Positions 26,009 through 55,190 of a stretch of 64,000 nt of DNA are shown here, one piece after another; within the stretch, counting starts at the first letter, position 1, and each line of letters starts with the position of its first letter. The translations under genes were made by a program, and so were the position numbers. The DNA is from a virus (taxonomy: Duplodnaviria; Heunggongvirae; Uroviricota; Caudoviricetes), in IMG/VR virus record IMGVR_UViG_2029527006_000005. One strand, written 5' to 3'. The notes under the pieces are model-generated. The model searched no databases. It saw only the letters and a list, made by a program, of their open reading frames with translations, and had not been told where the DNA came from.

Positions 26009-27133
26009 TTATGCGAACATTTTAGCGACTTCAACCGTGCGTAGGTTTGCAACGTAAGAACGGATATTCTTAGGCTCTAGCTCACCATCTTTTACCATCT
26101 GATCAATGTCGCCAATAACAGTACCTTCATACTTGTCATAAACCTTGACGATTAGTTCTTCTAGTTCACCATCAACGGTACGTTGAATGTTGAAGTATTC
26201 TAGTACTTTGTATAGGAACTCTTCACCGCCTTGGTTATGAATGTTCATTCTGGATAGTACATCTACCATTTGCTCAGGAGTCTTCTTCCTGAAGGTTTTG
26301 ATCTCATCACCGAAAGTTTCAATGAATTTGTGGAACTTCACAAAACGTGCAGGTAGTTTAATCTGACCAACAGTGTAGTCTTTCTTTACATCAGCCGTTG
26401 TACGGGATAGTAGGTAAGACCACATGAAATCCGCACTGTACGCCTCTGTGCTCATCGTAGCAAACTTATTGATAGCTTCACCGTCATCTTTATTGAAGCT
26501 CTCTAAGCCCGGTAGAATGCGTTTAATCGCACCCCATCCCTTTAGCTGAAAGATGAATGTACTTGGTAGACGCTCGGATAGTGCTTTCTCAAACTCAACG
26601 TAAACGCGTTCTGGTGTTAGAGAATCAATCTCACCTTTTTTAACCATTTCCATTACCATAGCTTCAGTACTTTCATGTACTGTAAAATCACTATAACGAG
26701 TAGCAAAACGTGCTAGACGTAGTACACGTAGTGGATCTTCAGCAAAGTGTGGGCTGACATGACGTAGTACTTTTGCTTGTAGGTCGGCTTTACCATTATA
26801 CGGGTCAACGTGTTTCTGGAATACCGGATCGTAAGCAATTGCGTTGATGGTTAGATCGCGACGGAATAGGTCTTGCTCTAGAGTAACACCTTCAGTCTCT
26901 ACAGTGAAACCTTTGTATCCAGTTCCAGATTTACGCTCAACACGAGCTAGTGCATACTCATCACCTGCTGGGGATAGGAATACCGGGAAATCTGCTCCTA
27001 CTTGTTGATATCCCTGTGAGATTAGATATTGAATATCACGCTCTTTTGCACCAACAAGTACATAATCTTTGTCTTTAGGTTTTAGGCCAAGTAGTTTGTC
27101 ACGAACGAAGCCACCTACGATATATTTTTTCAT
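26009..27133 (-). CDS. cca: tRNA nucleotidyltransferase (CCA-adding enzyme, class II)
   Basis: VGGFVRD, DKDY, EYALARVERKSG, DLFRRDLTINA, EDPLRVLRLARF. Confidence 0.95.
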   Translation of the reverse strand: MKKYIVGGFVRDKLLGLKPKDKDYVLVGAKERDIQYLISQGYQQVGADFPVFLSPAGDEYALARVERKSGTGYKGFTVETEGVTLEQDLFRRDLTINAIAYDPVFQKHVDPYNGKADLQAKVLRHVSPHFAEDPLRVLRLARFATRYSDFTVHESTEAMVMEMVKKGEIDSLTPERVYVEFEKALSERLPSTFIFQLKGWGAIKRILPGLESFNKDDGEAINKFATMSTEAYSADFMWSYLLSRTTADVKKDYTVGQIKLPARFVKFHKFIETFGDEIKTFRKKTPEQMVDVLSRMNIHNQGGEEFLYKVLEYFNIQRTVDGELEELIVKVYDKYEGTVIGDIDQMVKDGELEPKNIRSYVANLRTVEVAKMFA

Positions 27134-30370: not shown

Positions 30371-31894
30371 TTATCCGATGACCTTGTAGCGTGGTACATC
30401 AATCGCTGCAAGCATAATAGATACTGGATCTACTTGCTCACCTGATAGGATGGCTTTTAGAATTGCTGGACTAAAACCAGAAACCATTGCAGTTCCAGTT
30501 TCATCGAAGGTAACAGGGTTGTTACCAACACGACCATTTAGGTTCCAGAATACTACGTTAGGTAGTTTGTAACCAGCAGAAGCAAAAGCAGCTTTCGCAT
30601 ACTCATGGGCTGTTACATCCCAATTCCCTTCGTTTCCACCACCGTAAGTACAGTTGAATTCCATATCACTATAGATAATCATGTACTCAGGCATATCTTC
30701 TTGTGGTACATTTTGCTTCACAGCAACTTCTAGTACCTTTTCAAATGCCTTACCAATGTCAGTACTGCCACCCCAATATTCGTAACCTTCGTAATGACGT
30801 AGATCATAATACTTCTGATAAATGTCTTTACCTTCGAGTACAAATAGTTGTGGTTCTTCACTGAAGGTCAAGAATACATCCTTGAATGCACCCTTTTGCT
30901 TATCAGCAGTATAAAGAGATAGAGACATAGCTACATCTAAGCAGCTTAGTGATCCGGTTCCACCAGCAGAACAGCCCATAGAACCACTAGTATCACACAT
31001 TGGTAGAATACTAGCACCGTTTAGGAAATCTGGTAGTGCATCCCACTGGCCGATTAGTACATTGTCACGATTGCAATTGTTGAACTTAGTAGTAATGTCG
31101 TAAGGGAACAATGCTCCCGCATTTACCTTGACTTCACCACTTGCAACTTTCTCTCCGAACGCAGTGAAACGTTCTTCATCGTTACGCATAAATGCAGCAC
31201 GATAACGGTTCATTGCTACTGATGGTACATGTGAGTACTCAATTGATGACCAATCACGTGCACACATGTTCTGCTCTACGGTAGAACTTAGTGAGGAAAG
31301 TAGCTTGCGGTACTGTTTCTCGTTCAAGTTCATTACTTGCATTAGTTCACGTGCAATTGTATTGTTTGCAATACGGTTCTGGTTCGCTACTGTATCCTTA
31401 GATACATTACCGTTTTTGTCTTTCTTTAGCTTATAGATGCGTGGCATCCATTTAGCACAAAGAGCATTACCAGCACGAAGATGTGCTTCGATGGTACGAT
31501 ACGCATCTAGTTTTACCTGTGGGTTGGTAAAGATTAGTAGATCATCCCAACGACCATACTCTGCGAGTACTGGAATGATTTCAGAAAGATCATCTTGATG
31601 ATTTTCTTCCAAGAAACGAAGAATCTGACGAGTCGTTTCACGCTCACCTGCACCACCACGTACATCACGAACCCATAGGGTCATTTGTAGGGTTAGTTTA
31701 CGGTTAGCGGCATACGCCTTTTCAAACGCAGTTTGGAATGTGGAGAAATCCTTACCACGTACTGCACCAAGGATCGCGAAGAGATCAACCAATGGGTTCA
31801 ATGAACTCGCATGGGATACTGCACCGTTAGCGGTTACGCCTACGTTATCTTCAGCTTTGGTGTTTACATTTTGGACTGCATCTTTGAATGACAT
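30371..31894 (-). CDS. DUF2828 / Ro60-TROVE-like protein with vWA domain
   Basis: TANGA, RDVRGGAGER, YGRWDDL, AKWMPR, YSHVPSVA, DTSGSM, SDMEF, FWNL, VSGFS. Confidence 0.88.
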   Translation of the reverse strand: MSFKDAVQNVNTKAEDNVGVTANGAVSHASSLNPLVDLFAILGAVRGKDFSTFQTAFEKAYAANRKLTLQMTLWVRDVRGGAGERETTRQILRFLEENHQDDLSEIIPVLAEYGRWDDLLIFTNPQVKLDAYRTIEAHLRAGNALCAKWMPRIYKLKKDKNGNVSKDTVANQNRIANNTIARELMQVMNLNEKQYRKLLSSLSSTVEQNMCARDWSSIEYSHVPSVAMNRYRAAFMRNDEERFTAFGEKVASGEVKVNAGALFPYDITTKFNNCNRDNVLIGQWDALPDFLNGASILPMCDTSGSMGCSAGGTGSLSCLDVAMSLSLYTADKQKGAFKDVFLTFSEEPQLFVLEGKDIYQKYYDLRHYEGYEYWGGSTDIGKAFEKVLEVAVKQNVPQEDMPEYMIIYSDMEFNCTYGGGNEGNWDVTAHEYAKAAFASAGYKLPNVVFWNLNGRVGNNPVTFDETGTAMVSGFSPAILKAILSGEQVDPVSIMLAAIDVPRYKVIG

Positions 31895-32111: not shown

Positions 32112-33398
32112 TTAATCCTCACATTTGAGAAGGAATTTATTATTAATTACTTTAAAGTGTACTGTTACACCATTAACTTTTGTAACACTTTTATATACAT
32201 CTCCTTCACAAATTTTATGTTTGATAGATGCGTGGTCAGCAGATGCTAGTGCATCTTTAATGCTTTCGTACTCATCAAAGAAATACACGATATCACCCTG
32301 TGGAACTACAGTCAATCCTAGTAGTGCACAAAATTCTTGGAATTCAGCATCGTCAAAGAAACATTTATTATCAATATCCCAAACACGGAACGCAAAGAAT
32401 GTATGTTCAGTTAGTTCTTCACGGTTACCCTGAATACCCATTCCCATACATTCGCCTTGAATGGCTAGCTGACGATCATGAGCTACACAGTACTCTTTTA
32501 GACGCTGTGGGATATCGTCTTTTAGGGCCGCTTTCCAGAAGTGAGATTCTGCATCAAATTTAAGTGCTAGGTTACGAGAACAAATTGCAATCTGACCATC
32601 TTCCCACTGGAAAGGATATGGTTTAACTTCAACGATTTCTAGTTCTTGAGTTTCCTCATTCCATGCACGTACTTCTTCATCCACTTTCTCAACAAAGAAA
32701 TCTGGGTTAGAGAAGAATGCAATAGTTTGGCTAGAGCCATCTAGCTTTAGAGACTTACGGAAACCTACACCTTTCATGGTCTGAGAGTACTTACCAAAGA
32801 TATTCTGAACACGATCTTCATCAGTCTTAGGGATGGTAATAGGGAAGTTACCTGCACTCTTACATTTCTGTGCACCAGTACCGCCATTACGCTCATCAGG
32901 ACGTTCGTACTTAGTAACGTTCAAGAATTCTTCAATACCATAACGTGATTCTTCTAGAATGGAAAGGATGAATTTTTCGTCAAGAACTGCAAATGTTGGT
33001 GCATTGATAGATAAATTTTTTCCAAATTGTTCTGTCATAAAATCAGTTTGTCCAATTTTATACAATTCATTACTAAACATAGATACCGGGAGTGCTAGCC
33101 CTTGACTGACGACACCACGAAGTTTCTTGGTACGAAGACGGAAGCGACGTACACCAGCTTCATCAATCTTATCAGAACTACCAGTAAGAAATGCGAAGGT
33201 TGGGGTTTCTACTGGTACAAAAGAATCAATCTCAAGGAATACACAGTACTGACCAACTTCAAATTCACCTTTCTTGACTACAACATCCCAACCATCAACG
33301 GTTGCTTTTACAATCATATCCGCACCTTCAATCGGCTCAATAGCATTGATTTTACGAATAGTGACCAGTTTTCTTCCTTCTTTGATAAGTTCAGCCAT
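32112..33398 (-). CDS. ATP-dependent RNA ligase, DRB0094/Rnl5 family
   Basis: N-terminal OB domain (PIEGAD..., EIDS, KLRGVVSQGL), PKTDEDRVQN, KLDGSS, SRN, QGE, EG, FKVI. Confidence 0.92.
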   Translation of the reverse strand: MAELIKEGRKLVTIRKINAIEPIEGADMIVKATVDGWDVVVKKGEFEVGQYCVFLEIDSFVPVETPTFAFLTGSSDKIDEAGVRRFRLRTKKLRGVVSQGLALPVSMFSNELYKIGQTDFMTEQFGKNLSINAPTFAVLDEKFILSILEESRYGIEEFLNVTKYERPDERNGGTGAQKCKSAGNFPITIPKTDEDRVQNIFGKYSQTMKGVGFRKSLKLDGSSQTIAFFSNPDFFVEKVDEEVRAWNEETQELEIVEVKPYPFQWEDGQIAICSRNLALKFDAESHFWKAALKDDIPQRLKEYCVAHDRQLAIQGECMGMGIQGNREELTEHTFFAFRVWDIDNKCFFDDAEFQEFCALLGLTVVPQGDIVYFFDEYESIKDALASADHASIKHKICEGDVYKSVTKVNGVTVHFKVINNKFLLKCED

Positions 33399-40709: not shown

Positions 40710-40886
40710 ATTATAATTCTCTTTATATTCGCTGACCAACTCATTGCATTCGTTAGTCAAGAATTCATTACTTCGTTAGCTATCGCTATCGCTCATCTAA
40801 CTTGTACTGAATTGGAATATTTCAATTGTACTTTAATTATTGACACGGTTTGTTAGCCAATTCCATCCCCCCACAAAGGAGGGACG

Positions 40887-40909
40887 AAAAAAAATCAGGA
40901 TAATCCTGA
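40887..40909 (-). terminator. Terminator of the candidate ncRNA
   Basis: TCAGGA-TTA-TCCTGA-TTTTTTTT. Confidence 0.75.
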
Positions 40910-41371
40910 CACTGGTAGTCATACCAATCTGAATTTGTAGATTTTACTCAAATTCCAGACGGATCAATCCATTTGGAATAAAAGTAATCGCTGGCGGGTT
41001 GTCCGGTTTCCAGCTACTACAGTCGCATACAACGGTCGTGTTCCTCACACGCATACAGTACTTGCTAATTCAGCAACAAATACTGCTGTCTCTCCGTAAA
41101 GAGACTCCCTTTCAACTAGGTGAGTATGCCTCATATGTCTATCTAGGGCGTTTATGTTTTCTTACACGCCTTTATTGTGCCGCATTGCCGTGTCGCGTGT
41201 GATTTACTGTCCATTGGATTGACTACACTTACGCTTTATTACTGACGGGTTTCTTTTGCACATCGTACTGAACGAACTACTCATCTGCCATCTACTTTTC
41301 GATAGGATCAGGTTTCAATCTTCATGCTTTCACATGTCATTCAGGATTGGTATGACGAGGGTATCCCTCAT
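40887..41371 (-). ncRNA. Candidate ~480-nt structured non-coding RNA
   Basis: Own promoter and U8 terminator; 17-bp 5'/3' end pairing; many hairpins; no credible ORF; GC higher than flanks. Confidence 0.75.
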
Positions 41372-41376
41372 CATAT

Positions 41377-41405
41377 ATTATATCACAAAAAAACCCTTTT
41401 GTCCC
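41377..41405 (-). promoter_or_regulatory. GGGACA-N17-TATAAT promoter (copy 5), drives ncRNA
   Basis: GGGACA aaagggttttttTGTGa TATAAT. Confidence 0.8.
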
Positions 41406-45487: not shown

Positions 45488-46732
45488 TCACTTTTTGTTG
45501 TACCAATACATTTCATATAATTCTTCCATCACTTTTGCTGCAACCTTAATATCAGGCTTTTTGCGAAGTTGTGAGGACTTGACTAGTACTTCACGAATAT
45601 AAACCTCTTTATCGTTAAAGTACTGCATCATTTCTTCATAGGACCATGCACCATTTCGGATAGCTAATAACTCTGCTGCATCTGGTCTACGAACGTTAAC
45701 AACACCAGTAGTTAATGCTTCTTCGGCGGTGCGTAGAAGACGTACTACATGCATTGCATGTTTCGTATCATATCCATTTTTGGATTCAAGTTCCGAACGT
45801 TTTGCGTTGCGGTTCTTTTTCCAATCATGGTAGTGCTTACGGTTTTCGTTGTTCTCTTCAAACTCTTTACGATTGAATTTAACAATAAGTGCAGGAGTAA
45901 CTTTTAATTCCTCTGGAGTACGTTCTTTCTTACTATCCCATAAGAGGTTACCTAGACCCATTAGAGTCTTACTGCCTTCTTTTTCTACTACTGCAAAAAT
46001 ATCACTTCCGTAATGGATTAGTTCGTAATCATAATTGTAATGAGTAAGACTAAAATCACGATCAAGTACTTTCTCTGGTAGATAGTTGTGAACTAAACGG
46101 ACGAAGTGATGTTGTGCTAGTGGTACGGTACTGATAAGCTGCAACGAAGTATCACGCATGAATTTATCAAAATCAATGATAGTTTTGATATACATACCTT
46201 TACCTTTCGATGTATCAATACGATCAATTACGTAATCTGGGAAGTAATCATACATCCAATCAATAACTTGCTGGCAAGGATATTGGCTCCAGATTTCACG
46301 CAAACGCCGTTCTGCAATTTGCTCTTTCGCCATCCAACCGTGATGGTTTTTCATGCGAGTAGCTTGGTTGTGTGCATAGCCAGTGTAAGTATAAGCAATC
46401 TTAGTACTCAAGAGGTCATCTCGATAAGAACGTAAGTGATCGTACATTTCAGTACGTTGCACGATATCTTTATCGTCAACCCATAGAGTTTCTAGAATGT
46501 TTGGGTTAGCATCAACGCATAGTTCCATGAAGTGATTCAACTCAAAGAATTTGGTATCTTCTTCGGTTACATCATTTACTTCCCGGACGTTGAAGAAAGG
46601 GGTTAGTACAAATTTCTTTTCGGCTAGAAAGATACCTCGAAAGTCAACATCACTTTCTGGTGTACTTGTGCCATATGCATGTGAGCCAGCATAGTGCTTA
46701 ACTATCTGGCCTTTTAGGTGGTCATCGCTCAT
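45488..46732 (-). CDS. Pol-beta-superfamily nucleotidyltransferase (YcgL/RlaP-like)
   Basis: GSHAYGTSTPESDVDFRG, NPNILETL, YDTKHAMHVVRLL, LLAIRNG. Confidence 0.85.
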   Translation of the reverse strand: MSDDHLKGQIVKHYAGSHAYGTSTPESDVDFRGIFLAEKKFVLTPFFNVREVNDVTEEDTKFFELNHFMELCVDANPNILETLWVDDKDIVQRTEMYDHLRSYRDDLLSTKIAYTYTGYAHNQATRMKNHHGWMAKEQIAERRLREIWSQYPCQQVIDWMYDYFPDYVIDRIDTSKGKGMYIKTIIDFDKFMRDTSLQLISTVPLAQHHFVRLVHNYLPEKVLDRDFSLTHYNYDYELIHYGSDIFAVVEKEGSKTLMGLGNLLWDSKKERTPEELKVTPALIVKFNRKEFEENNENRKHYHDWKKNRNAKRSELESKNGYDTKHAMHVVRLLRTAEEALTTGVVNVRRPDAAELLAIRNGAWSYEEMMQYFNDKEVYIREVLVKSSQLRKKPDIKVAAKVMEELYEMYWYNKK

Positions 46733-49166: not shown

Positions 49167-51899
49167 TTAATGCCAACGTGTTCCTGTTCCTGAAGGGACT
49201 CCAGAACTCGCAGGGATTGCTGACCCACGTTTGGTAACGCTTGGTCTGTATGTTAGGAAACGTGTAACTTTTTCCGTAGTGATGGTATCAATACTTGTTG
49301 CACCAGTTACTATAGTACCAATGAAGCAATCTGTCAAGGACTCTGTGAGAAGAGTTGTTGATATGACATATGTTGCTTTTTTAGTTACTCGGTCCATCCG
49401 TACATAAAGATAAAACGTTGTATTGGCTGGGTTAGGTTTAATCGTTGTTAGATTATACGATACCGGGGCAATCTTGTCAAATATACCACCTAAGAAAACT
49501 GGAACTTCTTGTGTTATATACACATTAAATCCTTGTGGAACTTCCTGTGCTGCAACTACAATTCTATCCGTTACCGAACCAGTGTTTGCTATCATACCAT
49601 CCATTTGTGCTTCAGATGTTCCATAAAGCCCAAATACGGATTTGGTCGCTGAATCACTCCATGAATGATCATATATACCAAACCCAACTCCCGGTAGTAC
49701 TCCCGGTTCGAACGAACCAGTTTGAACATATGATTGTTGTAATGTTCTACTACTTTGTATTGTACCACTTTTAATTTTACCAATAAAGCAATACCATGTG
49801 GTATTTGCTGGAACGTTAAAACCATGAACACTACTAACACCAATGTAATTAAAACCACTAAATTTAGCAATTGTTAATCCATTAAATCTTCGAGTAACAT
49901 CATTAGAAGTAACATCAGTTACATTACTATAACCATTAGAGACAGAAGTACTAATAACACTACCACCAGTAATTGCATTTGAACTCAAGGTCAAAGCTAC
50001 TTCTGCTGTTATGATAGATCCTACGTTTGTATTACTTCTAGATTTCACAACAGCAATTGAATTACCAAATGATGAATCTGGAACATAAAAAATAGTTATT
50101 AAACTTTTGGTTAAATTTGTTAACCCAGCATTTGATATAATAGAATTTTTTAAATTCTGCATAACGGTGTTTGTCATCGTATAACTATTATCAAAAACTC
50201 CAGTACTAGTATTATACTTCCCTTGTGCTGGCTTTGTATATCCTTCAATGAAAGAAGAAGCATATGCACTAACATCACCATTTGCTTCAATCAATGAAAT
50301 CATAGCAGTGTATTGTTCAGTACTTGCACCCGAACCAATAATAGAACGTGTTTGTGGTTCATAACCAGTAAGAGTTCCATGTAGGATTGAATTATAAGTA
50401 TAGGTTCTTGTACTTCCTAATGTGGTAGTACTGTAAGAACTGTACGATGTTGTATTACCATTTTCTGTACCAGCACATGCAAGTACTAATTTGTTTTTAG
50501 TTAAGAATCTAACACCTAATAAGTTTTCACCAATTCCTGAACCAAATATAGGGTTAATATTTGCTGATTGTCTAGATGCAGTACGGGTAACTAAATTCCA
50601 TGAATTGTATGTATCAGTTTGATTAACACTAGCAGTAGAAAGTCCATATGTCGGACCAGATGACCATCTTGATTTATTACTAACAACGAAACCATCACTA
50701 GTTTGGCAAACACTACCAGTATTACCCAATGACAAACCATAACCTGTAATATTAACGGTATCAATTTGATATGGATCGACACGTGTAAAGTTTGTTCCAC
50801 CAGCATCAGCCGAAATTGAAATCGTATTACCCACTGTTTGATCATATGTTATTGTTTTAGTACTAATATTGTAGACGAAGCTAAACCCACTACCAAGCAT
50901 ATTTGTAACAGAAGTATCTGTTAATGCACGAGTACTGAACCATATTGCAACGCGAACTGAAGTATTATCACTATTTGGAACACAATATAAATTATATCTT
51001 TCCAAATTCTGCCAGTTTTCAACATTATTAATATTATTATTGATTGTATACAACGAAGGATCTGAAGAACTAAAACTACTATACATATCCCATATTCTAA
51101 TATTTGTACTATTAGTGTATGCGGTATTTCTTACTGTTTTACCATTATATCCAGTTACACGTGTCATGGAATTGATATTTCCAGCACGAATACTTGCCAC
51201 CGGAACGGTATATAGCACTAGAGCATATCCATTGTTTGTAACAGTTGTATCTTTACCCCAAATGAATACATTCGAGCCAATAACTGACGCATTTACTGGA
51301 TCAAAGTTTGTAAAAGTACTAACCGGGAATTGTGCCGATTGGTGAGATACAATACTTAAAGTACTATTTGTTAATGCTAATATGTAGGTATCACCAGAAG
51401 TTCCACCTGTTGTTTTGTAAAATAATATATCATATGCATTTGATGCATAGAATTGGCTTATTTCTTGATTAGCTGTGAATATAGAAGGTCGATATTCGGT
51501 ATTTGTGGTAACAACATCACTTTGTTGTAATCCTGAAATAGAACGAATATTTCTAACATAAGTGTAATAATATCCATATGTACTACCATTTGTACCAGAA
51601 CGTAGATATACACATGTACCATCATCTTCAAGGATAATTGGTTGTAAGTATTTTATGTACGAATAGTTAGATGCACCAGTGAAAGAACCACTTACGTTCA
51701 CAGGTAGATAATCCATTGTACCAATACGGGATACTGGAAGCATCCCTAGTATAGTGTCAATTTCATCTTTTCGATAATATGGATAATCAACATTACCGTT
51801 TGCATCAGCACCGATTCCGTTGAATGTGCGAAATGTGTTTCTATCGTTTACTTGTAGGTTTCCTGAAACTTCAAGGTTACCATATATTTTCTTTGACAT
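49167..51899 (-). CDS. Large virion fibre-like protein (paralog A)
   Basis: S/T/N-rich; shares N- and C-terminal modules with its two neighbours. Confidence 0.7.
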   Translation of the reverse strand: MSKKIYGNLEVSGNLQVNDRNTFRTFNGIGADANGNVDYPYYRKDEIDTILGMLPVSRIGTMDYLPVNVSGSFTGASNYSYIKYLQPIILEDDGTCVYLRSGTNGSTYGYYYTYVRNIRSISGLQQSDVVTTNTEYRPSIFTANQEISQFYASNAYDILFYKTTGGTSGDTYILALTNSTLSIVSHQSAQFPVSTFTNFDPVNASVIGSNVFIWGKDTTVTNNGYALVLYTVPVASIRAGNINSMTRVTGYNGKTVRNTAYTNSTNIRIWDMYSSFSSSDPSLYTINNNINNVENWQNLERYNLYCVPNSDNTSVRVAIWFSTRALTDTSVTNMLGSGFSFVYNISTKTITYDQTVGNTISISADAGGTNFTRVDPYQIDTVNITGYGLSLGNTGSVCQTSDGFVVSNKSRWSSGPTYGLSTASVNQTDTYNSWNLVTRTASRQSANINPIFGSGIGENLLGVRFLTKNKLVLACAGTENGNTTSYSSYSTTTLGSTRTYTYNSILHGTLTGYEPQTRSIIGSGASTEQYTAMISLIEANGDVSAYASSFIEGYTKPAQGKYNTSTGVFDNSYTMTNTVMQNLKNSIISNAGLTNLTKSLITIFYVPDSSFGNSIAVVKSRSNTNVGSIITAEVALTLSSNAITGGSVISTSVSNGYSNVTDVTSNDVTRRFNGLTIAKFSGFNYIGVSSVHGFNVPANTTWYCFIGKIKSGTIQSSRTLQQSYVQTGSFEPGVLPGVGFGIYDHSWSDSATKSVFGLYGTSEAQMDGMIANTGSVTDRIVVAAQEVPQGFNVYITQEVPVFLGGIFDKIAPVSYNLTTIKPNPANTTFYLYVRMDRVTKKATYVISTTLLTESLTDCFIGTIVTGATSIDTITTEKVTRFLTYRPSVTKRGSAIPASSGVPSGTGTRWH

Positions 51900-51907
51900 A
51901 ATATTCC

Positions 51908-52498
51908 TTACCAATTAATTGAGCCAGTCTGTGCTGGGTTACCAGTACTAACAGGGAATGCCGCACCGATTTTTGTAGTACTCGGACGATATGTACCAAA
52001 TCTCGAAACTTTTGAAATTGAGTTCGATGTTACCTGAGTAGCATTAGTAGTTATCTTTCCGACAAACATACAAACTTCAGTTTCACTTTGTTCACGAATT
52101 GAGAAATCATATGTCGGTTCACCTTGTTCTAATTTGACGTAAACGCAAAACGTCTGGTTTGTTGCAGGTGTATTATATAGTGCTAAATTATATGATGCTA
52201 TCGGCATATAAGTTAAAGAACCCGCCATAAACATCGGAATAGCTTTATTGAATGTTAAAACTAAACCACTGCTTGTTATATTAAATGATGAACTGTCGTA
52301 TAAATCACCGAACTGACTTAATGGCAGTTCGCGTAAAATATAGTTAGCATCATCTTTTGTTACTAACGGGACCGAAATGGCCCCATTAGTGTTTGCATAG
52401 TAGGTTCCCGTATTTGTAGTAATGGACAACCCTGTATTTTTATTTTGTACAACAATGTTTTTTGCTGCGTTAACATGTGCCTTTATAACAAATGCCAT
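51908..52498 (-). CDS. Short virion fibre-like protein (paralog B)
   Basis: Consists mostly of the shared terminal modules. Confidence 0.65.
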   Translation of the reverse strand: MAFVIKAHVNAAKNIVVQNKNTGLSITTNTGTYYANTNGAISVPLVTKDDANYILRELPLSQFGDLYDSSSFNITSSGLVLTFNKAIPMFMAGSLTYMPIASYNLALYNTPATNQTFCVYVKLEQGEPTYDFSIREQSETEVCMFVGKITTNATQVTSNSISKVSRFGTYRPSTTKIGAAFPVSTGNPAQTGSINW

Positions 52499-52508
52499 TT
52501 TAGTCTCC

Positions 52509-55190
52509 TTACCAATTTATTGTACCATTTCCAGATGGCATACCATAACTCACAGGGAATGAAGATCCTGCGGCTTCTAACGATTCACCAAATACATCAA
52601 GTCTCGAACGCTTCTTAACATTAATACTAGATATTTGTGTACTATTAGTTTGAATTGTACCAATCCAGAAAACGTTATATGCTGAGGTTCCTGTTTCAGC
52701 AATTACATCTTCGGTTATATGATATTTTGCAATTCCTTGCTCCATTCGTACATATAAATGGAATGTTGTATTTGCTGGATTAGCTTTTACTGTTCTCAAA
52801 TCAATATTCTGTATTGGCATTGTGAATGACTTACCACTTAACATAACTGGTGTTTCTTCAGTGAAGTACACGATAAATCCTTGTGCAACATCTTGTGAAA
52901 CTACAACAATTGGGCTACCTTGAGCAGTCCAGTTTGTGTACTCAGATAATGTAGTACCAGTTTTTGTAAATACAACTTTTGTCGCAGAGTCCACACTTGA
53001 CATATATCCAAAACCAATCCCCGGTAATGCCGCTGGCATTAAACCCATTACGTTTGATGTATAAGAACCATTTGTGTTGAAATTAGTAAACTGTTGAGTA
53101 GTTTTATCGACTGTTGCTCTCCATGCAAAACTAATATCATTGCCTACTGTAACACGAATTAATGGATCAGAACCACCAATAAAATAGAATGTTCCTGCAT
53201 CATAAATTGTAATACCTGCACTTACTGATCTAGTACTCGCAGTGTTTGTTTGTGACAAATCAGTTTGCAATACACCTTCTTGTACTAAACGTTTAAAAGA
53301 TATTGATGTAATGGAAGTTCTGGAATTCACGTTAACTTCGACAACTCGGTAATAATAATCACGTGTTGTTGTACCAGCAGACAAATATAAAAATGCAGGA
53401 ATGTTAGTCTGTTGTGGAACATACAATACCGCATTTTTTGATGATGTTGTTGATAGTGCCGTTGTTACTTTTGCAAATTCAGAATTTTTAATATTATTAA
53501 ATGCTGTTGCATCAACTGAAATTGAACCAGTACTGTTCATTGAACTATCATAAGTTAATGGAGTGGTTTCTCTTACACCTTGTATAAAAATACCACCATT
53601 AGTAGTAACAGTACTACCGCTAATTGAACTAATTAAAATCATTTTGTTGGCATTGTAATTATAACTATTTCTATTCACAGTAGGTTCATAACCTTGTAGT
53701 GTACCATATGTTGTGGATTTAAATGTAAAATTAGGTGTAGCTTTATGTTCAGCAGTTGAAAATACAGAAGAACCATTCCCACTAATTGACATTTGTTTTG
53801 TAGTATTGTTTGGAAGTAATTCTACTCCAGTTGTATTTTGACCAATAGGTGAACCATAGGATTCATTCATCTGGCCTATTCTGAAATTAATATTTGGATT
53901 TGCTTTCCAGTTCAACATATTGTATGGTGTTACTTCAGTACTATAACCAGCTACTTGAACATACGGAGGTCTACCTAAGTTTGGAGTACTAACACATATT
54001 ACTTGATTTAATGAAGTGTACTCATATGTATTTCCTAAGTTAGCACCACCGTTATGATAGTAAATATCAGTATTTTTGACAACATTCCCACTTGCAACTA
54101 ACGCACTTCCTGTATTGGTTATTGTTAGAGATGCCCCTGTTACATAACCTGAATCAATAGCTACCGCTTTTGTAGTTGGGTTAATTACAAAACTCAATCC
54201 GTGCTGAGGACGAACATTATAACTTGATGTAGAAGCCCAAGCGTCACCATTTAAGCGAATACGTATGTTTCCTGATGCTTTATCCTGAATTCCATAAACG
54301 TCATATGCAACCATGAATGGTACGTTAGCATTTAGACCCGCTGGAACCAACATGTATGGTTGATTAGCCGCATCTGAATCGACTAGTTTATCACAAAGTC
54401 TGATTGTACTCGCCCCCGCTGTATTGGTATATAGTAAGTTACCATTCCATCCTGTTAATTGTGCTGAAGTAAAAGTACCTGCACTTTCATTGAATAAAAT
54501 TCTAACTATACCGAAATTCACATTAGGGGTAGTATTCAATTCTACATAGTAAATGTAGCCATCTTCGCCTAAAAATACGTTTTCGAGAGTCCCGCCATTT
54601 GGACACACTGTGGTAGCTGGTACGATAAAACCATTATGTTGTGTATCATCTAATGTTCCTTTAGTTAATGATGTGAAAAATGTACCATCATTATTTCCAG
54701 TATCTCCGGTTTGCATGGAACCGCATACAATACCACGGTTTGAACTAATAATAGACAACGCATACTTACCTGATGGGAAATATCCCGGATGATAAACTTT
54801 ATTTGTGTTTATAGAAGAAGTCAAATTTGTTGTGTTTAATACATTTGGTAGATACGAATAATAAACACCAACTGTACCACCATTCGTACCGGGACGAAGT
54901 GCTACCATAGTACCGTCATCTTCTAATAGAATCTTTATTCTACGATAGCTAGCGTTTTCAGATGCACCAACGAAGTCACCTGAAACACCAGCAGGTAGGT
55001 AGTTGTGTGTACCATAGTGTGATAATGGAAGAGTACTTATAATATCTTCTAACTCTGCACGAGTATAACCATCAAGTACCATATTACCATTGGCATCAAA
55101 CAATGTACCGTCTATACTTTGTACTGTTCTTAGGCCAGAAGCGAACGCTTGGTGTGTAACGTTATAGCCTCCATAAATTCTTTTTGTCAT
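52509..55190 (-). CDS. Large virion fibre-like protein (paralog C)
   Basis: LPLSHYG..YLP..VSG.F.GAS, LEDDGT, GTNG shared with paralog A; late box at 55223-55228. Confidence 0.7.
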   Translation of the reverse strand: MTKRIYGGYNVTHQAFASGLRTVQSIDGTLFDANGNMVLDGYTRAELEDIISTLPLSHYGTHNYLPAGVSGDFVGASENASYRRIKILLEDDGTMVALRPGTNGGTVGVYYSYLPNVLNTTNLTSSINTNKVYHPGYFPSGKYALSIISSNRGIVCGSMQTGDTGNNDGTFFTSLTKGTLDDTQHNGFIVPATTVCPNGGTLENVFLGEDGYIYYVELNTTPNVNFGIVRILFNESAGTFTSAQLTGWNGNLLYTNTAGASTIRLCDKLVDSDAANQPYMLVPAGLNANVPFMVAYDVYGIQDKASGNIRIRLNGDAWASTSSYNVRPQHGLSFVINPTTKAVAIDSGYVTGASLTITNTGSALVASGNVVKNTDIYYHNGGANLGNTYEYTSLNQVICVSTPNLGRPPYVQVAGYSTEVTPYNMLNWKANPNINFRIGQMNESYGSPIGQNTTGVELLPNNTTKQMSISGNGSSVFSTAEHKATPNFTFKSTTYGTLQGYEPTVNRNSYNYNANKMILISSISGSTVTTNGGIFIQGVRETTPLTYDSSMNSTGSISVDATAFNNIKNSEFAKVTTALSTTSSKNAVLYVPQQTNIPAFLYLSAGTTTRDYYYRVVEVNVNSRTSITSISFKRLVQEGVLQTDLSQTNTASTRSVSAGITIYDAGTFYFIGGSDPLIRVTVGNDISFAWRATVDKTTQQFTNFNTNGSYTSNVMGLMPAALPGIGFGYMSSVDSATKVVFTKTGTTLSEYTNWTAQGSPIVVVSQDVAQGFIVYFTEETPVMLSGKSFTMPIQNIDLRTVKANPANTTFHLYVRMEQGIAKYHITEDVIAETGTSAYNVFWIGTIQTNSTQISSINVKKRSRLDVFGESLEAAGSSFPVSYGMPSGNGTINW

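Follow-up and report, generated by a model that had tools for sequence, protein, structure and literature searches.

Plasmid ColE1 begins replication without an initiator protein. Transcription from a promoter 550 bp upstream of the origin yields the folded RNA II, whose G stretch pairs with a C stretch of the template; RNase H cleaves the hybrid, and helicase is loaded on the displaced strand (PMC5043065, PMC4412123, PMC5778457). Such a G stretch is essential in ColE1 as well as in mitochondria (PMC4412123, PMC6317783). Bacteriophage T4 possesses at least five origins, two of which consist of a phage-activated promoter and an R-loop (PMC3016281). Another set of described elements, the large, pseudoknot-rich RNAs ROOL, GOLLD and OLE, are also carried by phages and have their own promoters (PMC12286853). 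The function of most large ornate bacterial RNAs is not known, and the literature searched holds no description of the replication start of Rak2-like jumbo phages.

The stretch of DNA analysed here (the window, 64,000 nucleotides) comes from a virus record of 359,777 bp, of which it covers bases 182,596-246,595; the virus is a jumbo phage of the Rak2-like group, closely related to Salmonella phage Munch. A first-pass annotation, made from the sequence alone, had singled out positions 40887-41371 as its only long stretch free of open reading frames, and this holds: 648 nt lack any ORF of at least 70 aa, the next such stretch in the window being 343 nt long. At 94% identity, the locus is matched by Salmonella phages Munch, 7t3 and PHA46 and by Klebsiella phage Kae01, and it also has homologs among jumbo phages of the GAP32, PBECO4/121Q and RaK2 types. 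Around it lie hypothetical genes together with an HNH nuclease gene and a ferritin-like gene; no neighbouring gene is common to different paralogs of the RNA. The RNA proposed in the first pass is real, while the functional unit is larger than the interval then given and spans about 41405-40735. On sequence grounds, we consider it rather probable that each copy of this unit is a ColE1-like, cis-acting, RNA-primed replication origin that satellite-like islands have hijacked. The features of the window copy (paralog A), in the direction of transcription, are the following.

41377 to 41405, minus strand: phage-type promoter GGGACA-17-TATAAT with extended TG (sequence scan, class counts).
40906 to 41371, minus strand: structured non-coding RNA, predicted ends (folding z, covariation).
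41345 to 41369, minus strand: optional 5' hairpin (41369-41357), then the 5' arm (41356-41345) of an end helix of 12 bp, specific to this subfamily, whose other arm is 40929-40918; not conserved family-wide.
41265 to 41344, minus strand: 5' domain (helices 1-3; 90.6, 93.6 and 100% paired).
41106 to 41262, minus strand: central domain (helices 4-7, invariant columns).
40929 to 41105, minus strand: 3' domain (helices 8-15, 89-100% paired).
40906 to 40918, minus strand: repeat 1, inside the RNA, X-Y-AYC-A(bulged)-NN-GUCA (identity co-variation with repeat 2).
40887 to 40909, minus strand: optional intrinsic-terminator-like hairpin with U run.
40867 to 40883, minus strand: C-rich tract and G6 run, the latter at 40872-40867 (G run in every homolog with downstream sequence).
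40840 to 40852, minus strand: repeat 2, downstream DNA, X-AA-AYC-NN-GTCA (identity co-variation with repeat 1).
40780 to 40839, minus strand: AT-rich stretch, candidate unwinding element (GC comparison).
40736 to 40794, minus strand: cluster of DNA mini-hairpins with GNA triloops and tandem GA pairs, a possible site for loading a primosome or helicase onto the displaced strand.

The GGGACA promoter that the first reading placed on the minus strand is present as GGGACA-17-TATAAT at 41405-41377. Its class, GRRACA-17-TAYAMT, may need a phage factor; it occurs 32 times on the minus strand of the phage genome and once on the plus strand, and a related promoter lies upstream of the other copies of the RNA, those in islands included. 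The minus strand carries, beside these 32 sites, 26 sites of TTGACA type. In infected cells, the RNA would be transcribed from this promoter. In one wastewater run (X1), contig depth was 520-720 on the RNA against mostly 0-20 on its flanks, and one deep contig stopped directly after CGUCAG; the RNA nature of this run was guessed, its data are contigs and it was picked because the stretch is present in it, so that depth and contig end are hints only, and contig ends cannot map RNA ends. Coverage in the RNA runs X8, X11 and X12 was too low for use.

Pattern scans yielded 101 near-full-length homologous loci, 71 of them non-redundant. At the locus itself, the folding z score is -5.0 for the minus strand and -3.9 for the plus strand. 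In the alignment of 71 sequences, 21 column pairs exceed a tree-simulated null, all 21 of them Watson-Crick, and 90 columns are nearly invariant (at least 95%). In a second alignment of 59 sequences with less than 93% identity, the core structure (15 helices, 78 pairs) shows 95.9% pairing and two-sided changes at 64 pairs, compared with 72% pairing in shuffles and 33-43% with slid partners; since the sequences from which this structure was derived overlap with those aligned, the test on the tree gives the fairer control. At least five pseudoknots are supported in the core. Together with the lack of Rfam matches described below, this strongly supports the initial view of an undescribed large structured phage RNA with its own promoter. 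It is a real, uncatalogued family of heavily knotted RNAs of about 470 letters, and no paper describing it was found in the literature searched, which covered few subscription journals.

In the 5' domain, a pseudoknot joins 41344-41338 to the loop 41274-41268 of hairpin 41280-41265, and a second hairpin (41311-41285) has a conserved GAAA(N)GUA loop. The central domain is built on 41262-41258/41180-41176, crossed by 41185-41183/41137-41135, with further pairs at 41248-41245/41191-41188 and 41170-41166/41151-41147 and an invariant AAGGGA at 41111-41106. In the 3' domain, the loop 41073-41068 of hairpin 41086-41055 pairs with 40934-40929, and helix 41033-41029/41002-40998 is crossed both by 41014-41010/40994-40990 and by 41021-41017/40940-40936; a variable arm occupies 40987-40944.

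This fold departs from the end-paired RNA pictured at first: pseudoknots dominate, and the end helix is optional. Each stem listed in the first-pass annotation can be found in the sequence where it had been placed, and conservation separates them. Of the 17 bp of the end helix, no more than the outer 12 are plausible, and these in this subfamily only; across the family the helix is 22-64% paired, with compensation in locus L008. Its inner strands (5' CUGAAU, 3' AUUCAG) are displaced by better, strongly co-varying pseudoknot partners at 41274-41268 and 41073-41068. The GUAGAU/AUCUAC helix is not conserved, CUACA at 40940-40936 pairing instead with UGUAG at 41021-41017 (99% paired). The terminator proposed on the basis of a U run does exist as a hairpin and U run at 40909-40887, but only 28 of 59 homologs have one. 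A CCA-ended tRNA mimic, also suggested, is contradicted by the copies themselves: 37 of 73 read ATCA, and ACCA is part of the repeat motif.

Searches of Rfam at gathering score and at E <= 10 with the locus and 20 homologous loci gave only chance matches, with none to ROOL, GOLLD, OLE, tmRNA or RNase P, and ARAGORN found no tRNA or tmRNA at the locus. Resemblance to RNase P RNA is limited to the look-alike words AGUGCAGAA and UAGAUAGA, without a P4 consensus or an Rfam match; intron and tmRNA look-alike words likewise belong to no full signature. An RNA associated with a reverse transcriptase (retron, DRT2, template jumping between repeats) was rejected, as no reverse transcriptase was found in the phage genome (PF00078) or among the island proteins scanned. 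Protein coding was rejected as well, given that the length of the ATG frame is inconstant among homologs: no ORF of conserved length exists across them, the longest ATG frame on the RNA strand having a median of 36 aa (13-59). Small annotated CDS overlapping the RNA in some records look spurious, and BLAST matches to Staphylococcus and Vibrio phages are promoter-sized and due to chance.

Two features of the alignments are noted in passing. A module of about 20 nt, resembling UACAAUAUAGAUCCGUCC, is present in 29 of 59 copies at variable insertion positions (columns 580-600 and 755-775 of alignment A2; 40950-40975 in the window), sometimes twice, and is a candidate tertiary or inter-molecular contact. 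Three distant phage-like contigs (L112, L128 and L132, the last adjoining tail-fibre-like genes) keep the 3' domain, the G run and the repeats, in an ACGAAG variant, and have a different 5' domain; a scan of IMG/VR found no further member of this subfamily.

Conservation continues past the RNA. All homologs with flanking sequence have a pyrimidine tract and a G run (G5-6), with repeat 2 following 16-20 nt after the G run. The repeat motifs cover 40918-40907 (repeat 1) and 40852-40841 (repeat 2). They are coupled: 7 of 10 positions are identical between them in 73 of 73 non-redundant copies, and the positions that vary do so together. The pair 40915/40848 is TT in 31 copies and CC in 28, with six changes each on the tree and six joint; 40918/40852 is CC in 49, GG in 7 and AA in 3 (four changes each, four joint), and 40911/40845 shows three changes each, three joint. 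Rare variants, too, are changed in both repeats, namely CTTCA in RaK2, CGACA in a Serratia island and ACGAAG in three metagenome contigs. When copies were sought by the downstream motif only, one in RaK2 and one in PBECO4 came to light, and both proved to have the predicted repeat 1.

No RNA column co-varies with the repeat as its complement, and no consistent complement lies within 600 nt. The sole complement of repeat 1 is therefore predicted to be the template DNA strand at repeat 2. The base following the motif points to the same partner: RNA G is mismatched with DNA A in 9 cases and the reverse never occurs, as expected if repeat 1 pairs with the template strand of repeat 2 (a G-T wobble), and not the other way round. 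We thus infer that repeat 1 would pair with template DNA at repeat 2. Repeats that bind a protein are disfavoured, because the repeats differ between paralogs of one genome yet match within each paralog. A local hairpin that can form upstream of repeat 1 was dismissed since it occurs in some copies only, in shifting registers and without co-variation, and repeat 2, which resembles a -35 box on the other strand, lacks a suitably spaced -10 element in those sequences that were inspected. Together with the G run before it and the AT-rich stretch and hairpins beyond it, this pair of direct repeats that vary in step, with its asymmetric wobble, is the new element of the present analysis. At one RaK2 locus (L234, about 7.4 kb), identity between the two repeats runs on over about 19 bases, a hint of homogenisation or of a longer hybrid.

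In the predicted hybrid of repeat 1 and template, a fixed internal loop and an invariant bulged A (40913) recur. This raises the question of a ribozyme that uses the irregular repeat helix to dock onto the DNA downstream of it and self-cleaves, nicks or branches onto DNA, for instance at this A. The 90 nearly invariant columns, in a pseudoknotted core, and the deep wastewater contig stopping right after CGUCAG would be in keeping with such an activity; the RNA bears no known ribozyme signature, the contig end maps no RNA end, and the phage has an RNase HI of its own. We regard a ribozyme as very improbable as an explanation in its own right, while noting that catalysis may be the chemical step of a primed origin.

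The same co-variation bears on an abundant RNA acting in trans, as a cage, scaffold or protein decoy in the manner of ROOL and GOLLD, with island copies serving as decoys against the phage. Size and pseudoknot density are those of the ornate class (PMC12286853), the wastewater depth on the RNA would suit an abundant product, the module inserted in 29 of 59 copies might serve as a contact between molecules, and the islands carry defence genes. A purely trans-acting scaffold or decoy, one of the functions first offered for the locus, nevertheless leaves unexplained why the RNA co-varies with DNA 60 nt beyond its end, and equally the G run, the strand-specific hairpins and the spacing of copies; nor is there an Rfam match to ROOL or GOLLD, or a tRNA near the window copy. 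We find this reading quite unlikely. Within the list of functions first put forward, which is partly supported overall, the replication primer is the one that has gained specific support, from the co-variation in cis and from the hairpins downstream.

These hairpins follow an AT-rich stretch, for which the family mean GC is 0.27 against 0.35 for other intergenic DNA. Of 57 copies, 20 have a strict GA-stem-GNA-stem-GA hairpin on the non-template strand at a distance of 40-110 nt downstream of repeat 2, compared with 0/57 on the opposite strand, 0/53 upstream, 0/59 in the RNA and less than 1% of genome windows. A looser C-GNA-G mini-hairpin is found in 51 of 57 downstream windows (background, 11-13%). 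In the phage genome, the strict form follows repeat 2 by 35-89 nt at all four paralogs, among 16 minus-strand occurrences genome-wide. In ColE1, it occurs once in the whole plasmid, on the same strand and 157 nt after the origin G run, in a region which we take to be the primosome assembly site (n'-pas). The motif was defined after viewing the sequences, so its weight rests on the ColE1 match and the strand asymmetry.

The elements described for the ColE1 and T4 origins have counterparts or candidate counterparts in the phage unit, in the same order. Transcription from the phage-type promoter would give an RNA of about 470-600 nt whose pseudoknotted core presents its 3' segment, repeat 1. This segment would pair with the template strand at repeat 2, just past the G run, forming an anchored RNA-DNA hybrid (R-loop), and a 3'-OH primer could arise in either of two ways: RNase H might cut a transcript that has read through, or an RNA end at ...GUCA might be used directly. 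On the displaced strand, the AT-rich stretch and the mini-hairpins would be exposed for loading of helicase and primase. The phage encodes RNase HI, a 5'-3' exonuclease and a DnaB-type helicase.

Likeness to ColE1/pMB1 extends to the absence of a recognisable Rep (in the window unit, promoter 41405-41377 lies upstream of G run 40872-40867, and no Rep gene is recognised in islands), a promoter about 550 nt upstream, a long folded RNA, a G run, available RNase HI, an RNA segment repeated in downstream DNA (in ColE1, the rG stretch and the template dC stretch) and a GA/GNA mini-hairpin downstream on the strand that would be displaced. Differences are equally clear. The phage family profile has no nhmmer match to ColE1, and the RNA has no sequence similarity to RNA II or to any PLSDB plasmid, which counts against the model; at least five pseudoknots are present here, and the anchor would be a bulged repeat of 12 nt where ColE1 has a G stretch. 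At the locus, neither an antisense RNA I or Rop nor an antisense promoter inside the RNA was found. The T4 origins oriF and oriG (PMC3016281) share with the phage unit the presence of several origins, a phage promoter class, an R-loop primer and an AT-rich downstream element; they are about 100 bp long, with little homology and no need for a specific RNA sequence, whereas here a fold of 470-600 nt and a specific repeat are under selection. By this comparison, the phage unit would work like the R-loop origins of ColE1 and T4 without being a member of either group.

Several observations weigh against an origin. The terminator-like hairpin between repeat 1 and the G run, where present (28/59), would limit read-through, and the one wastewater run suggests a very abundant RNA, beyond the need for a primer. 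GC and AT skew by codon position gives no origin signature. The post hoc definition of the hairpin motif and the unannotated island proteins, any of which could hide a Rep, also detract from the case.

The phage genome contains four copies of the RNA, at 61.8, 143.2, 223.6 (the window copy) and 293.7 kb, all on the minus strand and with the same promoter class. A fifth copy, which Munch has at the matching place, was not found in this assembly between 294 kb and 62 kb (across the ends), which leaves a gap of 128 kb. The enterobacterial jumbo phages have 3-5 copies per genome, always on one strand, a weak argument when taken alone as 80% of the coding DNA is on one strand. Spacing is more even than random in seven genomes (p 0.0001-0.025), which are related, so that the tests are not independent and the evenness is partly inherited. 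With three to five co-oriented copies, initiation would be spread along the 350-kb genome; gaps of 128 kb in the phage record and 184 kb in RaK2, the inherited spacing and the strand bias weaken this argument for origins.

Evenly spaced, cis-acting copies co-oriented with transcription would also suit a nascent-RNA element that modifies RNA polymerase, such as a put-like antiterminator re-supplied along long operons. Half of the copies, however, have a terminator-like hairpin downstream, and at paralog B, as in several islands, the gene that follows is convergent. For the latter reason the RNA is not a leader, and an antiterminator is the reading to which we give least credence.

Spacing likewise bears on the idea that tethering of the RNA in cis, to the DNA that encodes it, serves packaging or concatemer processing, initiation of recombination or genome organisation, and that islands carry it so as to be packaged or mobilised by the phage. 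Satellites often share packaging signals with their helpers, and such a role would account both for the co-variation of the repeats and for the unit being the only DNA that islands share with the phage. Packaging needs one site, against the 3-5 evenly spaced ones seen, and the G run, AT-rich stretch and ColE1-like hairpin point to replication; another cis-acting DNA role is unlikely in our view.

Returning to the RNA-primed origin, its second setting is in integrative islands. Full units were found in nine GTDB genomes (eight of them Enterobacterales, the ninth a Clostridium bin), in 2 of 5,426 E. coli genomes and in eight metagenome contigs; the contig in the Clostridium bin, 98% identical to a Buttiauxella copy, is probably mis-binned. 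In a sample of 401 genomes, the known carrier was the sole positive, and no PLSDB plasmid carries the family. The islands are low in GC and 10-12 kb long, and the unit follows their integrase, which is of serine or tyrosine type; they have att repeats, for example 24-bp repeats around 10.7 kb at ffs in E. coli or 55-bp repeats around 12.3 kb. Typical island genes encode a repressor pair (CI-like and Ner-like regulators), a conserved unannotated protein and a small resolvase, and defence-like cargo includes Hachiman, DarT, AbiGi and PDC-S73; the one island helicase is cargo-like. Neither Rep or primase nor structural genes were recognised in islands, where several proteins are unannotated. With an integrase, att repeats, small size and no virion gene set, the islands resemble phage satellites. 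At 12 island loci, the Ner-like gene is followed by one for a protein with a hydrophobic N-terminus (L219:8040-8900, L220:8046-8612, L213:15297-16070), without Pfam or PHROG match, a candidate anti-phage or exclusion factor.

The only DNA common to islands and phage genome is the RNA unit with promoter-like sites. Island copies do not form one clade (AU p = 5e-6), and the unit has therefore moved between phages and islands more than once. The islands, with one copy and no Rep, have probably borrowed the unit in order to be copied by the phage: they would be excised and replicated during phage infection, as satellites. PLE and the E. coli RepA_N satellites (PMC10448857) are similar in size (10-13 kb), integrase, att sites and defence cargo, but have RepA_N and capsid or tail genes, whereas no Rep or structural gene was recognised in the present islands, which carry a helper-type RNA unit; the E. 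coli satellites of Barth 2023 are a different family. Presence in multiple copies in a lytic phage and in chromosomal islands, with absence from PLSDB plasmids, further separates the unit from ColE1/pMB1, just as the lack of Rfam matches (E <= 10, 21 loci), occurrence in enterobacterial jumbo phages and coupled downstream DNA signals separate it from ROOL, GOLLD and OLE.

If this is correct, the unit is an RNA-primed origin unrelated in sequence to that of ColE1 and far more elaborate, which explains the even multi-copy layout, and the islands are a satellite-like family for jumbo phages whose sole shared handle is an RNA gene. The unit would also provide an infection-inducible replicon and a new RNA-DNA recognition module. 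A bolder proposal, which we consider somewhat less likely than not, is a new class of origin in which an ornate RNA recognises the DNA downstream of it through a programmed bulged helix and makes or delivers the primer without initiator protein, possibly by catalysis, and which Rep-less satellite islands have captured repeatedly to parasitise jumbo phages.

The related jumbo phage PA5oct has long non-coding transcripts, ncRNA001-004, seen by RNA-seq (PMC7318152). They were rejected as homologs, as they give no profile match and PA5oct has no G-run/repeat motif. An unannotated structured gap in PA5oct (12.8-13.7 kb; L001:5810-6720) and at L232:717-1335 shares long stretches with ncRNA004, suggesting a second multi-copy RNA family in that phage.

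Elsewhere in the window, RNA-handling genes are located at 26009-27133, 30371-31894, 32112-33398 and 45488-46732; they comprise a tRNA nucleotidyltransferase, a DUF2828/DUF7788 protein, an RNA ligase and a second nucleotidyltransferase. Two large paralogous proteins (phrog_3573) are encoded at 49167-51914 and 52509-55190, near an anaerobic ribonucleotide reductase gene. Outside the window, the early region at 320-333 kb of the phage record features about 8 GGGGGA...CCCCC hairpins, followed by ATGCAAA and TATAAT.
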